From positions 16,932 through 80,931 of the forward strand of contig DATNGC010000004.1 of assembly GCA_035606075.1 (NCBI GenBank): DNA of 64,000 nucleotides, written 5' to 3'. Source of the DNA: Elusimicrobiota bacterium. GTDB taxonomy: Bacteria; Elusimicrobiota; Elusimicrobia; UBA1565; UBA9628. Under the pieces are notes generated by a model that had not been told where the DNA came from, did no database searches, and saw only the letters and a list, made by a program, of their open reading frames with translations. Made by a program: the position numbers and the translations under genes. Below are positions 54,582 to 61,663 of this stretch, piece by piece. Position 1 is the first letter of the stretch, and each line of letters starts with the position of its first letter.

Positions 54582-55247
54582 ATGAAGTCCGTCCTCTTCG
54601 ACTACGGAGGGACGCTCGATTCCGACGGGACCACCTGGCTCGAGCGCTTTTATCCCATTTATAAGGAAAACGGGATCGTCTCCGACCGCTCGCGCTTCGA
54701 CCGGGCTTTCTACGACTCGGATGACAACCTGCCGGCGCGCTTCGCGCTGGACGGACTCGACCTCGAGCAGACCCTGCGCCTGCAGGTCCGCGGCGTCCTG
54801 GACGCCCTGGCCCCGGAGCGCGCGGACCTGACTCCGAAGATCGCGGGGCGCTTCGCGGAGGACAGCCGGCGGCATTTCCGCGTCCTGAAGCCCGTCCTGG
54901 AGCGGCTGGCCTCCCGTTTCCGCCTCGGCGTCGTCTCCAACTTTTACGGCAACCTCGACGGGATCCTGCGCGCCGAGGGGCTGCGCGGACATTTCGCGGT
55001 CGTCGCCGACTCCGGCGTCCTGGGCGTGGAGAAACCGGATCCGGAGATCTTCCTGCACGCCGCGCGCGCTCTCGACGCCCGCCCCGAGGACTGCGTCATG
55101 GTCGGCGACTCCATCCCGCGCGACATGAAGGGCGCGGCGGCGGCCGGCATGAAGAAAGCGCTCGTCTGCGCCGGGGCCGAGACGCCCGACGCCGGCCAGG
55201 ATTGGACCGTGCGCACCGTCGCCGAGCTCGAGGCGGTCCTCGCGTGA
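54582..55247 (+). CDS. HAD-superfamily hydrolase (phosphatase-like)
   Basis: 221 aa. The N-terminal VLFDYGGTLD is a motif-I-like block and GDSIPRDMKGAAAAGM is motif IV. There is a TATAAT-like -10 element 6 nt before the ATG. Confidence 0.7.
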   Translation: MKSVLFDYGGTLDSDGTTWLERFYPIYKENGIVSDRSRFDRAFYDSDDNLPARFALDGLDLEQTLRLQVRGVLDALAPERADLTPKIAGRFAEDSRRHFRVLKPVLERLASRFRLGVVSNFYGNLDGILRAEGLRGHFAVVADSGVLGVEKPDPEIFLHAARALDARPEDCVMVGDSIPRDMKGAAAAGMKKALVCAGAETPDAGQDWTVRTVAELEAVLA

Positions 55248-55954
55248 GCTTCGCGGCCGGCGTCATCGCGGCGGGCGAGGGCTCGCGCCTGGCGGCGAGC
55301 CACCCGGGCACGGTCAAGCCGCTCGTGCCCGTCGCGGGCCGGCCTCTCTCCCACTGGATCGTCGGCGCGCTGCGCGCCGCCGGCGCGCGTGGGCTCACGG
55401 TGCTGACCAACTCGCGCGGCGGCGCCGTCGCCCCGAGCCTGACGGCGGCGTTCCCGGGCTTCGCTTTCGATTTCGTGTCGCGGGACACCGCGTCGTCGTA
55501 CGAGAGCTTCCGCCTCGTCTCGCTCCGCCTCGCCGAGCGCGAGGACGCCTTCCTGATCAGCACGGTGGACGCGCTCGTCCCCCCGGCCGACGTCGCGCGA
55601 TTTTGGAACGAGTGCCGCGCGGCGCGCGCCGACGCGGGCCTGGCCCTCACCGCTCACGTCGACGACGAGAAGCCGCTGTGGGCCGACGCCGACGCCGCTG
55701 GCCTCGTGTCCGCGATCGGCGACGACGCGCGAAAGCGCGAGCTCGTGACCTGCGGGCTCTATTACATGACCCGCGCCGCGGCCGCCCGCCTGCCCGAGCC
55801 GTCCGCGCACGCGCGCCTGCGCGATTTCTGGCGAAGCTTGGTCTCGGGCGGCGCCCGCGTGGCCGGACCCATCCTTACCAAGACCCTCGACGTCGACCGT
55901 CCCGAGGACGTGCTCGCGGCCGAGGCCTACCTGACGGCGGAGACGAAGCGATGA
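55244..55954 (+). CDS. Sugar/alcohol-phosphate nucleotidyltransferase (NTP_transferase fold); a candidate inositol-phosphate cytidylyltransferase
   Basis: GTG start overlapping the HAD stop (GTGA). GVIAAGEGSRL is the G-x-G-x-R-L nucleotide-binding loop. Confidence 0.65.
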   Translation: MSFAAGVIAAGEGSRLAASHPGTVKPLVPVAGRPLSHWIVGALRAAGARGLTVLTNSRGGAVAPSLTAAFPGFAFDFVSRDTASSYESFRLVSLRLAEREDAFLISTVDALVPPADVARFWNECRAARADAGLALTAHVDDEKPLWADADAAGLVSAIGDDARKRELVTCGLYYMTRAAAARLPEPSAHARLRDFWRSLVSGGARVAGPILTKTLDVDRPEDVLAAEAYLTAETKR

Positions 55955-59135: not shown

Positions 59136-60306
59136 GCGCGCCTCCACGCCGGCTCTCTACGAGCGCGCGATCCTCTGGGTCGCGCACGCGCCGCTGCTCT
59201 GGCAGCGCGTCGGCGGCATGAGCGTGCTCGAGCGCCAGCTGTTCACGGCCGCGCGGGCCGGGATCAAGTCCGTGTGGATCGGCATGCACGCGCCGGCGGA
59301 GGACGTCCTGGACCGGCTGCGTATTCCTCCGGGACTTGATATCCGCTGGGTGCCCAAGGGCGACGCGTCGCTCGTCGAGTGCGAACCGCCCTACCTCGGG
59401 CTCTCCGCCGACCATTTCATCCGCGTCGAGACGCTGGCTCACGTCGCGCGACAGAGCTACCGGGAGTCCGTCTCGTTCAACGACGCCTCCGGGCTCGGCG
59501 TGATCCAAGTCGTCCTCGCTCGCGAGGACGTGATCTCCCGGGCCAAGCAGGAACTGCCGGCGGGCGCGTACCGCCGCCTCGAGGCGCCGCTGGCGGCCGA
59601 GGAGACGATCTCCTGGCTGATGGCGGCGGGCCCCAAGAGCCAGGACGGCTTCATGGCCCGGCATTTCGACCGCCACATCTCGCTGGCCGTCTCGCGCCAG
59701 CTCCTGGAGACGTCGGTCACGCCCAACAAGATGACGCTCTTCAGCACCCTGCTCGGGCTCGCGGGCGCGGCCTTCTTCCTGGGGGCCTCGCGCGCCGCCT
59801 ACGTGCCCGGAGCGCTTCTCGTGTGGCTGCATTCGGTGCTCGACGGCTGCGACGGGGAGCTCGCGCGCGTGCGCTTCCAGGAGAGCGCGTTCGGCAGCGA
59901 CCTCGATTTCTGGGGCGACAACGTCGTCCACCTCGCTCTGTTCACCTGCCTCGGCGTCGGCTTCTGGCGCACGGGCAACGGGGCGCACACGCTCGTGCTC
60001 GCGGCGGTGGCGGACCTGGGCGTGGTCGCCTCGGCGGCGACGGCCTGGCAGCACCGCCGCCGGCACCGCGCGGTCTCCGCGCCGGAGGCGGGCGTCACCG
60101 ACGGCGAGTCCAAGCTCGCGAAGCTCGAGAACTCGCTCGCGCAGCGCGACTTCATCTACCTGCTCGTCCTCCTCGCGATGGTGGACTGCGTCTACGAGTT
60201 CCTGTGGGCCGCCGCGATCGGCGGGCTCCTCTACTTTGGCATCATGCTGTATCTCAGGAGAGTCAACGACAATGAACAAGCACGACAGCCGTATCCCGCC
60301 CGCTAA
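59128..60306 (+). CDS. CDP-alcohol phosphatidyltransferase with an N-terminal soluble (nucleotidyltransferase-like) domain; IPCT/DIPPS-like architecture
   Basis: 392 aa. The C-terminal membrane domain carries DGCDGELAR...G...D...D, the CDP-alcohol phosphotransferase signature. An N-terminal soluble domain of about 180 aa precedes the TM helices. Confidence 0.75.
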   Translation: MPERASTPALYERAILWVAHAPLLWQRVGGMSVLERQLFTAARAGIKSVWIGMHAPAEDVLDRLRIPPGLDIRWVPKGDASLVECEPPYLGLSADHFIRVETLAHVARQSYRESVSFNDASGLGVIQVVLAREDVISRAKQELPAGAYRRLEAPLAAEETISWLMAAGPKSQDGFMARHFDRHISLAVSRQLLETSVTPNKMTLFSTLLGLAGAAFFLGASRAAYVPGALLVWLHSVLDGCDGELARVRFQESAFGSDLDFWGDNVVHLALFTCLGVGFWRTGNGAHTLVLAAVADLGVVASAATAWQHRRRHRAVSAPEAGVTDGESKLAKLENSLAQRDFIYLLVLLAMVDCVYEFLWAAAIGGLLYFGIMLYLRRVNDNEQARQPYPAR

Positions 60307-61663
60307 GGGCAAGCTCGGGATCCTGCTCCCGGGAATGGGTGCGGTCTCCAGCACTTTCATCGCGGGCGTGGAGCTCGTCAAGAAGGGCCTCGGCAAGCCG
60401 GTCGGCTCGCTGACGCAGCTGCAGACGATCCGGCTGGGCAAGCGCTACGAGAACCGCTCGCCTCTCATCAAGGACTTCGTGCCTCTGGCCGCGCTGAACC
60501 AGCTCGTGTTCGGCGGCTGGGACTTCTACACCGACGACATGTTCGCGGCCGCGACGAAGGCCGGCGTGCTCGACGCGGCGCAGCTCGCGCCGATCAAGAA
60601 GGAGCTGGAGGCAATCAAGCCGATGTCTCCCATCTACGACCCGGCTTACATCAAGAACATCAAGGCCGTCAATCCGAAGAAGGGCAAGTCCAAGATGGAC
60701 CTCGCCCAGCAGGTCATCGCGGACATCGAGAGCTTCAAGAAGAAGAACGGCTGCGACCGGGTCGTGATGCTCTGGTGCGGCTCCACCGAGATCCTGCCCG
60801 AGCAGACGGCGGTGCACGAGGACATCGAGGCGTTCGAGCAGGGCCTGCGCGACTCCGCGCCGGAGATCCCGCCGTCGATGATCTACGCCTACGCGGCGAT
60901 CAAGTCCGGCATCGCCTACGGCAACGGCGCGCCGAACCTGTCCTGCGACTGCCCGGCGCTCGTCGAGCTCGCGGAGCTGACGAACACGCCGATCATGGGC
61001 AAGGACTTCAAGACGGGCCAGACGCTCATGAAGACCACCATCGCGCCCATGCTGAAGGCGCGCATGCTGGCGCTGTCGGGCTGGTACTCGACCAACATCC
61101 TCGGCAACCGCGACGGCGAGGTGCTCGATGACCCGGGCTCCTTCAAGACCAAGGAAAAGAGCAAGATGTCGGTGCTCGACACCATCCTGGAGCCGGAGAG
61201 CTACCCCGACCTGTACGGCAAGTTCCACCACAAGGTCCGCATCGACTATTACCCTCCCCGCGGCGACGCGAAGGAAGGCTGGGACAACATCGACATCCGC
61301 GGCTGGATGGACATGCCGATGCAGATCAAGATCAACTTCCTGTGCCGCGACTCGATCCTGGCGGCGCCGATCGTGCTCGACCTCGTCCTGTTCCTGGACC
61401 TGGCCAAGCGCGCCGGCCTCAAGGGCATCCAGGAATGGCTGTCGTTCTACTTCAAGAGCCCGCAGTGCCGCGAGGACCTCAAGCCCGAGCACGACCTGTT
61501 CATCCAGCACCTGAAGCTGAAGAACACGTTGAGGATTCTTATGGGAGAGGAAGTCCTGGACCACTCCGGCCTGGACTACTACGACGCCGAGAAGGGCGCC
61601 GTCTCGTCGGCTCCGGCGCCGAAGCCGGGACCGAAGCGGAAGGCGCTCGCCAAGGCGCGCTGA
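60272..61663 (+). CDS. ino1: myo-Inositol-1-phosphate synthase (inositol-3-phosphate synthase), prokaryotic type
   Basis: Start set at MNKHDSRI with AGGAGA 8 nt upstream. Blocks typical of the MIPS family are present: GILLPGMGAVSSTF and the NAD-binding region, NGCDRVVMLWCGSTE, and SYNHLGNRDG-like NILGNRDG. Confidence 0.85.
   Translation: MNKHDSRIPPAKGKLGILLPGMGAVSSTFIAGVELVKKGLGKPVGSLTQLQTIRLGKRYENRSPLIKDFVPLAALNQLVFGGWDFYTDDMFAAATKAGVLDAAQLAPIKKELEAIKPMSPIYDPAYIKNIKAVNPKKGKSKMDLAQQVIADIESFKKKNGCDRVVMLWCGSTEILPEQTAVHEDIEAFEQGLRDSAPEIPPSMIYAYAAIKSGIAYGNGAPNLSCDCPALVELAELTNTPIMGKDFKTGQTLMKTTIAPMLKARMLALSGWYSTNILGNRDGEVLDDPGSFKTKEKSKMSVLDTILEPESYPDLYGKFHHKVRIDYYPPRGDAKEGWDNIDIRGWMDMPMQIKINFLCRDSILAAPIVLDLVLFLDLAKRAGLKGIQEWLSFYFKSPQCREDLKPEHDLFIQHLKLKNTLRILMGEEVLDHSGLDYYDAEKGAVSSAPAPKPGPKRKALAKAR

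Follow-up and report, generated by a model that had tools for sequence, protein, structure and literature searches.

In a contig of an Elusimicrobiota bacterium (DATNGC010000004.1 of assembly GCA_035606075.1; the 64,000-nucleotide stretch from position 16,932 to 80,931 of the forward strand is hereinafter called the window), seven genes, all on the plus strand, fill window positions 54582-61663 and form an operon that encodes myo-inositol-1-phosphate synthase (MIPS) together with six other enzymes. This operon is real, widely conserved and uncharacterized, and its gene set is that of a cytidine diphosphate (CDP)-alcohol/inositol phosphodiester pathway with an added module for oxidation, amination and ATP-grasp chemistry. 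Tentatively, with a little less than even confidence, we propose that the operon converts glucose-6-phosphate to an inositol phosphate unit that is modified, most likely by amination, and is joined through a phosphodiester bond to another alcohol, and that the product serves the cell envelope.

The protein families were assigned with Pfam and NCBIfam profiles, and the scores were compared with the gathering or equivalog cut-offs (Table 1). The genes are tightly packed: the HAD and nucleotidyltransferase genes share a GTGA (55244-55247), the nucleotidyltransferase and ATP-grasp genes an ATGA (55951-55954), and the aminotransferase and oxidoreductase genes a CTGA (58149-58152); the ATP-grasp and aminotransferase genes are separated by a 3-nucleotide gap (56805/56809), the oxidoreductase and CDP-alcohol genes overlap by 8 nucleotides (59128-59135), and the CDP-alcohol and MIPS genes overlap by 35 nucleotides (60272-60306). 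The boundaries of the first three genes match the public gene calls on the identical contig. Seven terminator-like sites were found within the operon against the expected 5.0 +/- 2.6, that is, at chance level. A promoter consensus scan of the region 5' of the operon gave no sigma-70 match, and no regulatory RNA (Rfam) or tRNA was found in the 64-kb window, the DNA of which is GC-rich (about 0.65-0.74). We read the seven genes as one operon. An earlier note on this DNA had described these gene families, their translational coupling, and an inositol-centered core consisting of MIPS, a separate nucleotidyltransferase, and a CDP-alcohol phosphotransferase extended at the N-terminus by an extra domain; the Pfam matches and the junctions bear out this description.

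Table 1. Genes of the seven-gene operon and the preceding intergenic region (window coordinates)
Feature	Position	Strand	Profile matches and remarks
Divergent intergenic region, presumed promoter	54258..54581		Between pilM (minus strand) and the HAD gene; AT-rich just 5' of the ATG
HAD-IA phosphatase, 221 amino acids	54582..55247	+	Pfam Hydrolase 78.8 bits, HAD_2, Hydrolase_like
MobA-like nucleotidyltransferase, 236 amino acids	55244..55954	+	NTP_transf_3 46 bits; GxGxRL motif
ATP-grasp enzyme, 284 amino acids, undescribed family	55951..56805	+	
Class-III pyridoxal phosphate (PLP) aminotransferase, 447 amino acids	56809..58152	+	Aminotran_3 324 bits
Gfo/Idh/MocA NAD(P) oxidoreductase, 328 amino acids	58149..59135	+	GFO_IDH_MocA N domain 72 bits, C domain (C3) 80 bits
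AF2299-like CDP-alcohol phosphotransferase, 392 amino acids	59128..60306	+	CDP-OH_P_transf 47.6 bits, residues 198-336
Myo-inositol-1-phosphate synthase (MIPS), 463 amino acids	60272..61663	+	NAD_binding_5 (PF07994) 320.8 bits, Inos-1-P_synth (PF01658) 118 bits

A profile scan with the ATP-grasp family, with one genome per species, showed that at least 575 species genomes encode a relative of this protein; the best 80 loci were taken and searched with the seven window proteins. The order HAD, nucleotidyltransferase, ATP-grasp, aminotransferase, oxidoreductase, CDP-alcohol enzyme, MIPS is found in about 45 of these 80 loci, and most of the others are interrupted by contig ends. Because the identical order recurs in so many independent loci from several phyla, the arrangement is no chance juxtaposition. 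The carriers belong to Elusimicrobiota, Methylomirabilota (NC10), Rokubacteria, Nitrospirae, Acidobacteriota and Desulfobacterota, and also to Hydrogenedentota, and, as judged by the record titles, are metagenome-assembled genomes from groundwater, soil, peat and freshwater, those of Elusimicrobiota coming from groundwater, soil and peat. The closest ATP-grasp homologs are up to 92% identical to the window protein; in the other phyla, identity to the window is 36-46% for the HAD protein and the nucleotidyltransferase, 39-43% for the ATP-grasp enzyme, 52-57% for the aminotransferase (50-57% when all phyla are compared), 33-44% for both the CDP-alcohol enzyme and the oxidoreductase, and 64-67% for MIPS. 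MIPS is the most conserved protein of the cluster, with 64-89% identity between phyla compared to 29-57% for its operon partners, which suggests strong constraint or recent exchange of the gene. Clustering of all flanking open reading frames (ORFs) yielded no eighth family kept across phyla and, therefore, the seven genes are the unit. This distribution also bears on an aminocyclitol secondary-metabolite cluster of the antibiotic type, for which it could be argued that MIPS, a phosphatase, a Gfo-type dehydrogenase, an aminotransferase and phosphorylation mirror early streptidine biosynthesis. However, the seven-gene unit contains no glycosyltransferase, resistance or export genes, and a single-copy, syntenic, strongly conserved presence in at least 575 species from many phyla is the pattern of housekeeping or envelope genes; by this distribution and conservation, we rule out aminoglycoside-type secondary metabolism and regard any antibiotic-type product as extremely improbable.

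The loci that deviate from the common order differ in what they lack. One of these (L037) contains the HAD, ATP-grasp, aminotransferase, oxidoreductase and MIPS genes but neither the nucleotidyltransferase nor the CDP-alcohol gene; another one (L053) is without the CDP-alcohol gene; and MIPS is missing from several loci. The HAD gene is present in nearly all loci, L037 included. Two Elusimicrobium-like loci (L056 and L058) contain only the trio of ATP-grasp, aminotransferase and oxidoreductase genes, located after genes for an aspartate aminotransferase and a phosphoenolpyruvate carboxykinase, and L087 contains only the trio and the CDP-alcohol gene. In L088, the gene order is rearranged, with MIPS first, and all seven genes are still together. 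In L049, MIPS is absent and a sodium:solute symporter gene lies after the oxidoreductase gene, which we count in favor of the proposed pathway. Because the variant loci keep the trio, the ATP-grasp, aminotransferase and oxidoreductase genes are the invariant core of the cluster. Long ORFs in L046 and L079 that could pass for ATP-grasp/aminotransferase fusions were rejected as such, being merely aminotransferase frames that stay open upstream in high-GC DNA. An apparent 805-amino-acid fusion of the CDP-alcohol phosphotransferase with MIPS in L083 (13488-15905) likewise speaks for the proposed pathway but could be a sequencing frameshift, and L082 (7578-9488) encodes a 636-amino-acid fusion of the CDP-alcohol phosphotransferase with a second nucleotidyltransferase.

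These variants could be taken to indicate that two unrelated modules are combined, such that MIPS, the nucleotidyltransferase, the CDP-alcohol enzyme and the HAD phosphatase make plain phosphatidylinositol or inositol ceramide, as has been proposed for the alternative cluster of Bacteroides vulgatus, and the trio does a job that does not involve inositol. Indeed, the trio stands alone, or with the CDP-alcohol gene, in the three loci named above, the aminotransferase resembles amino-acid omega-transaminases, and the four-gene set occurs alone in Bacteroidetes that make inositol lipids (PMC9246714). However, the trio sits between the nucleotidyltransferase and CDP-alcohol genes, not at one end of the operon, and is translationally coupled to both neighbors; across phyla, the genes remain interleaved in this way at 33-57% identity, and even with the order rearranged in L088, the seven genes have not come apart. 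We consider such a division into two modules to be quite improbable.

The product of the last gene of the operon matches both Pfam domains of MIPS over the full length (PF07994 at residues 15-421). The product of the sixth gene has a soluble N-terminal domain (approximately residues 1-165) that is followed by a juxtamembrane helix (DGFMARHFDRHISL) and then by six transmembrane segments; the hydropathy profile gives six hydrophobic segments and no added C-terminal helices. The PF01066 signature D-x2-D-G-x2-A-R-x8-G-x3-D-x3-D is present (LDGCDGELARVRFQESAFGSDLDFWGD; 47.6 bits versus the Pfam cut-off of 22), and its form in this protein, DGCDGELAR-x8-G-x3-D-x3-D, is complete and invariant in 12 orthologs. 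The best NCBIfam model is the IPCT/DIPPS equivalog NF041135, with 78.3 bits versus a cut-off of 580 and coverage of residues 169-369 only, and the other models score lower still: 51 bits versus 170 for PIP synthase (PIPSynth), 16.9 versus 304 for PgsA, and 16.6 versus 350 for the BT_1523-type model. When the family profile was compared to PDB, AF2299 (4O6M) scored 141 bits (E 5e-40, including an 11.8-bit stretch of the N-terminal domain), DIPPS 77 bits and PIPS 66 bits; the juxtamembrane motif DGFMARHFDRxISL is common to AF2299 and DIPPS, not PIPS. The N-terminal domain reads WVAHAPLLWQRVGGMS, so that the GxGxR motif is lost, and gives no match to PF21682 (AF_2299-like_N) at E <= 0.01. Because the GxGxR motif is missing, this domain is probably a degenerate, cytidylyltransferase-like one that is inactive as in AF2299. 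The protein thus combines the AF2299-like features, namely, a degenerate cytidylyltransferase-like N-terminal domain, a hydrophilic juxtamembrane helix and six transmembrane helices, with a C-terminal third that contains an invariant RDFIY motif and aligns to no solved structure.

Several specific identities for this enzyme were rejected: a bifunctional IPCT/DIPPS, given the score far below the equivalog cut-off and the lack of an active GxGxR N-terminal domain, and PgsA and PIP synthase, given the scores below the respective cut-offs and a juxtamembrane motif that is not of the PIPS type. The reading of this protein as DIPPS-like in the earlier note was right at the family level, AF2299 and IPCT/DIPPS being the nearest solved relatives, and the possibility raised there that this is a standard phosphatidylglycerophosphate synthase is excluded by the PgsA score. 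A small CDP-alcohol is predicted to be the donor, in keeping with the presence of a separate nucleotidyltransferase in the operon. In a homolog of AF2299 from Archaeoglobi (L085), 74% identical, the AF_2299-like_N and CDP-OH parts are encoded by two separate genes, the neighborhood of which is uninformative.

The nucleotidyltransferase, with the N-terminal sequence GVIAAGEGSRL, has its best solved match at 25 bits; when an ortholog from Elusimicrobiota was compared with the fused IPCT/DIPPS-like protein of L069, identity to the IPCT half was 25-30%. Given its partner enzyme, it is a putative cytidylyltransferase that would make the CDP-alcohol donor. The HAD protein gives only subfamily-level NCBIfam matches below the cut-off and may be an inositol-phosphate phosphatase that acts on the substrate or on the product. 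The oxidoreductase scores best against the NCBIfam model of IolG (TIGR04380), at 63.6 bits versus a cut-off of 355, and, in PDB, against 1ZH8 (79 bits), and contains the EKP and DxxxH motifs; it belongs to the Gfo/Idh/MocA superfamily, but membership in the inositol 2-dehydrogenase family IolG was rejected because the equivalog cut-off is not reached, and inositol dehydrogenase activity is a candidate function. No ATG, GTG or TTG lies 5' of the GxGxxG motif of this protein, but a CTG is located 10 codons before the motif. The CTG is kept at the same position in the close relatives of the window (L001, L002, L004, L005, L008, L016, L017 and L062), a TTG takes its place in L007, and the more distant orthologs have an ATG 6-9 codons before GxGxxG. 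The oxidoreductase therefore probably starts at the CTG that overlaps the stop codon of the aminotransferase gene, an overlap that fits coupled re-initiation.

The aminotransferase matches only PF00202 (Aminotran_3), and its best relatives in NCBIfam and PDB are aminotransferases of gamma-aminobutyric acid (GABA), acetylornithine and putrescine, all below the equivalog cut-offs. The classical inosose aminotransferases StsC, BtrS and MosB belong to the DegT/DnrJ/EryC1/StrS family, and class-III enzymes acting on cyclitol ketones, of the ValM/AcbV type, are the exception. With PF01041 (DegT_DnrJ_EryC1) not matched, an identity as a StsC-like, DegT-family inosose aminotransferase was rejected. 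The earlier note had presented a Gfo/Idh/MocA dehydrogenase and a class-III aminotransferase as the classic pair for inosamine formation; the two families stand, but "classic" is inexact, given the family to which the classical enzymes belong. The aminotransferase may nevertheless act on a keto-cyclitol, a proposal that draws on operon logic rather than on specificity evidence.

The ATP-grasp enzyme is a family of its own, with a probably RimK/LysX-like fold and one ITPK1-like motif. From Elusimicrobiota to Acidobacteriota, 47 alignment columns are invariant, including the motifs RE..(N/H)SP.RE.DD at the N-terminus, WVKRGDVH, GDLIKFYG, WFYH and GGDAI...IDxNxWPS. A direct sequence search of PDB with the protein gave no match at E <= 10; with the family profile, the best match was human ITPK1 (E 0.002, 57 residues only), in which VIDINAFPGY is aligned to VIDINSWPSF of the family. 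Pfam Ins134_P3_kin (PF05770) weakly matches 7 of 21 members (best E 0.004), below the gathering score, so that membership in the ITPK1 family was rejected. Identity to the RimK/LysX/ArgX ligases and the ITPK1/PPIP5K kinases is 11-20%, no member of the family reaches any Pfam or NCBIfam cut-off, and the N-terminal motif has no counterpart identified in either group. The evidence is thus divided between ligase and kinase. We lean slightly toward a carboxylate-amine ligase acting in the fashion of RimK and LysX; a kinase in the fashion of ITPK1 is possible but less probable.

From this gene set, the following route can be proposed. MIPS would convert glucose-6-phosphate to 1L-myo-inositol-1-phosphate, as strongly supported by homology, and the HAD phosphatase might release myo-inositol. 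The Gfo/Idh/MocA enzyme would then oxidize a ring hydroxyl to yield an inosose, and the class-III PLP aminotransferase would convert the inosose to an inosamine. The ATP-grasp enzyme would either join the new amine to a carboxylate or phosphorylate the cyclitol for later nucleotide activation. The nucleotidyltransferase, in view of the partner enzyme, would form a CDP-alcohol, that is, CDP-inositol or CDP-inosamine, from which the six-helix AF2299/DIPPS-like enzyme, with its motif intact, would transfer the phospho-alcohol to the hydroxyl of an acceptor, releasing cytidine monophosphate; the substrates are conjectural. Each variant of the route uses every gene once. That the HAD enzyme would feed free inositol to the trio is suggested by L037, where the HAD gene persists although the genes for the nucleotidyltransferase and the CDP-alcohol enzyme are missing. 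Strong homology supports only the MIPS step and the predicted catalytic competence of the CDP-alcohol enzyme; the remaining steps are read from the gene set.

The genomic surroundings point to the envelope. Of the 19 loci from outside Elusimicrobiota, 15 contain hopanoid or isoprenoid genes no farther than 10 kb from the cluster (the hopanoid genes seen are shc and hpnA-E, G, H, L, M and N), and loci in which the cluster is embedded among hpn genes come from at least five phyla. In L068, genes for HpnA (505 bits), HpnL (325) and HpnM (176), all above the NCBIfam cut-offs, lie directly upstream of the HAD gene; in L069, HpnM-like, HpnN-like, squalene-hopene cyclase (798 bits) and HpnL-like genes are located upstream, and a gene for an IPCT/DIPPS-like fusion as well as a further HpnL-like gene downstream; L070 encodes HpnH (553 bits). 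The scores of the cyclase and of HpnH also exceed the NCBIfam cut-offs. In L088, the cluster is flanked by hpnA-B-C-D-E-shc and by PF03706-MlaA-MMPL-MlaC-hpnG, and in L089, it follows hpnH, hpnG, MlaA, hpnA, hpnL and hpnM. Loci of the Acidobacteriota type contain SQS_PSY, a B12/radical-SAM gene, Dxs, IspH and a PF03706 gene, and then the seven genes. Indeed, in the loci of the other phyla, a PF03706 flippase-like gene is often located directly 5' of the HAD gene. The phyla concerned are reported to carry shc (PMC7306690). In the literature searched, no paper ties hopanoid loci to MIPS or inositol, and a detailed survey of acidobacterial hpn clusters is silent on such a link.

In Methylomirabilota and Rokubacteria, a pair of genes recurs near the seven-gene cluster (L069, 16571-19055; L078 and L080, ~2200-5450): one is HpnL-like (PF03706), and the other encodes an apparently active IPCT/DIPPS-like fusion whose NF041135 score of 243 bits is below the cut-off (580). 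This recurrence suggests that a second module for inositol phosphodiesters lies next to the hopanoid genes. In three low-GC Elusimicrobia loci (L064, L065 and L067, ~7400-8620), a GT4 glycosyltransferase gene (Glycos_transf_1, Glyco_transf_4), reminiscent of MshA-type inositol-phosphate glycosyltransferases, is located directly 5' of the HAD gene.

In Elusimicrobiota, the window included, the operon is flanked by pilMNOPQ on one side and by a bamA-skp-lpxD block on the other. In the window, the type IV pilus operon (pilM-pilN-pilO-pilP-pilQ-like; 49321-54257, minus strand) is divergent and directly upstream, a synteny common to most Elusimicrobiota loci. Downstream, inserted genes for a DoxX-like small membrane protein and a MarR-type regulator (61727-62646, minus strand) separate MIPS from a BamA-like gene (62842-64000, plus strand) that runs off the window and is 67% identical to the gene directly after MIPS in L001. 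Farther upstream, at ~5000-48000, the ORF list shows apparent envelope and glycan genes, among them family-2-like glycosyltransferases and large multi-pass membrane proteins, as well as an NAD-dependent epimerase (8854-9837) and an asparagine-synthase-like gene (36703-38646). A patch at ~38900-39700 with a local GC content of 0.55 versus ~0.70, containing a 243-amino-acid ORF (38935-39666, minus strand) with an atypically low third-position GC content of 0.59, may be a small foreign insertion within this glycan-biosynthesis region. AT skew is strong (0.34) at 44-48 kb of the window.

With the cluster located within hpn loci, one could envisage that the trio tailors hopanoid side chains, the aminotransferase acting like HpnO to give an amino-bacteriohopanepolyol, with the oxidoreductase supplying the carbonyl, the ATP-grasp enzyme acylating the amine, and the inositol genes adding phospho-inositol to the polyol. 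Amide-linked amino-acid derivatives of aminotriol are known, and HpnO is itself a class-III, ArgD-like aminotransferase (PMC5462960). However, no hopanoid gene is found within 10 kb of the operon in the window or at any of about 66 Elusimicrobiota loci; the ATP-grasp enzyme, the aminotransferase and the oxidoreductase are soluble by sequence, with no membrane segments; and it is MIPS, rather than hpnG or hpnH, that constantly accompanies the trio. Side-chain tailoring therefore appears very unlikely.

The envelope destination is supported by the usual neighbors of the cluster, which are hpn, Mla, MMPL and PF03706 genes or the bamA/lpxD block, and by the PF03706 genes in particular, given that a PF03706 "lysyl-PG synthase-like" membrane protein accompanies the inositol-lipid clusters of Bacteroides (PMC9246714). 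In addition, the low-salt, mesophilic habitats of the carriers are not those in which an osmolyte of the di-myo-inositol-phosphate (DIP) type would be expected. The product could be a polar head group or the precursor of one, possibly acting with hopanoids or attached to them, and a cytoplasmic osmolyte is, we think, less likely than an envelope product.

A number of observations weigh against this proposal. The scores of the oxidoreductase, the aminotransferase, the HAD protein and the nucleotidyltransferase are far below every equivalog cut-off, and their specificities are putative; the aminotransferase is of the GABA/acetylornithine type, not of the DegT type usual for inososes; and the occurrence of the trio with no MIPS, HAD or nucleotidyltransferase gene nearby (L056, L058 and L087) implies that its substrate need not be inositol. 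No cultured carrier of the cluster was found. The ~66 Elusimicrobiota loci have no hopanoid genes within 10 kb, the 64-kb window has no homologs of shc, hpnH, hpnL, hpnM or hpnN, and neither the window nor the other Elusimicrobiota loci have a PF03706 gene. The role of AF2299 is unsettled in the literature, one paper describing it as "probably involved in the synthesis of PI-phosphate". AF2299 and DIPPS use small hydrophilic CDP-alcohol donors and process no lipids, and the six-helix architecture is typical of enzymes with soluble acceptors (PMC4634129); by this argument, the six helices and the hydrophilic donor motif of the sixth gene product point to a soluble acceptor and product rather than a lipid head group.

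Because the architecture of the CDP-alcohol enzyme argues against the envelope, the main rival is a soluble, cytoplasmic compatible solute of the DIP or glycerophospho-inositol (GPI) kind, bearing an amino or acyl group on one inositol. Here, CDP-inositol (or CDP-inosamine) would react with inositol-1-phosphate on the AF2299/DIPPS-like enzyme, and the HAD enzyme would strip the remaining phosphate; MIPS, a cytidylyltransferase-type gene and a phosphatase also make up the logic of DIP synthesis in the IPCT/DIPPS pathway, and the closest relatives of the CDP-alcohol enzyme are precisely AF2299 and DIPPS. However, the carriers are not thermophiles or halophiles, the cluster lies beside genes for the membrane and the outer membrane, and the similarity to the IPCT/DIPPS equivalog is only about 78 bits versus 580. 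We consider a solute unlikely. As for the envelope product that we favor, a more specific form of it, also unlikely and somewhat more so, is a phospho-aminocyclitol head group (phospho-inosamine or N-acyl-inosamine phosphate) carried by bacteriohopanepolyols or by an outer-membrane lipid that partners with hopanoids, and flipped by an HpnL-like PF03706 protein. If so, many uncultured hopanoid-producing phyla would possess an unrecognized class of envelope lipids, HpnL-type genes would gain a substrate, and a phosphodiester-linked type would be added to the known ether, glycoside and amide types of composite hopanoids.

Prokaryotic inositol phosphodiesters are known as solutes of thermophiles, such as DIP and GPI, and lipids of Actinobacteria, Bacteroidetes and archaea. 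Literature searches, which also covered work on CDP-inositol published after 2022, on myo-inositol in Methylomirabilis, and on inosamine in connection with phosphatidyltransferases, returned no description of the seven-gene set, in agreement with the earlier note, in which this exact set was not recognized as a described pathway; its placement in hopanoid loci is likewise unreported in the literature searched. The operon is a concrete candidate for explaining hopanoid-associated genes such as hpnL, a candidate source of unassigned nitrogen- or phosphorus-bearing lipids in environmental lipidomes, and a physiological context for the AF2299-type CDP-alcohol phosphotransferases, which are structurally solved but functionally orphan. 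The carriers belong mostly to uncultured phyla, and neither the reach across phyla nor the hopanoid link is visible from the window alone; at ~7 kb and self-contained from glucose-6-phosphate onward, the operon is open to direct heterologous expression.

One of the closest known systems is the functionally unconfirmed "alternative" inositol-lipid cluster of Bacteroides vulgatus and Prevotella, which consists of MIPS, a nucleotidyltransferase, a CDP-alcohol phosphatidyltransferase and a HAD hydrolase (Heaver et al. 2022, PMC9246714). Four of the seven genes match this cluster, which upholds the likeness to a Bacteroidetes CDP-inositol route that had been pointed out from the DNA alone. The same four enzyme families are clustered in both, a likeness of families and co-location that may or may not extend to orthology with the B. 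vulgatus proteins (BVU_RS13095/13105/13115), and the proposed logic is the same, with a separate nucleotidyltransferase making CDP-inositol for the CDP-alcohol enzyme. PF03706 is a frequent neighbor there, as it is here in the loci of the other phyla but not in the window. The B. vulgatus cluster lacks the ATP-grasp, class-III aminotransferase and Gfo/Idh/MocA genes, and its carriers are gut Bacteroidetes, whereas the seven-gene cluster belongs to uncultured environmental phyla.

At the level of the CDP-alcohol enzyme, the counterparts are AF2299 of Archaeoglobus fulgidus (4O6M) and the IPCT/DIPPS AF0263 (4MND), which share with it the cytidylyltransferase-like soluble N-terminal domain, the six transmembrane helices, the juxtamembrane motif DG(F/W)(M/I)(A/S)R..(D/N)R.(I/V)S, and the full DxxDGxxAR...GxxxDxxxD signature; unlike in these structures, there is the RDFIY C-terminal third, which does not align. 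For the chemistry as a whole, the early streptidine/scyllo-inosamine pathway is the nearest parallel, leading from glucose-6-phosphate via inositol phosphate, inositol, scyllo-inosose and scyllo-inosamine to phosphorylated inosamine, as proposed here, and likewise employing a Gfo/Idh/MocA-type dehydrogenase. However, the enzymes are non-orthologous: the aminotransferase here is of class III instead of the DegT/StsC type, the phosphatase is HAD instead of IMPase, and an ATP-grasp enzyme takes the place of the APH-type kinase, and the route proposed here goes further, to CDP activation and a CDP-alcohol phosphotransferase in the membrane.

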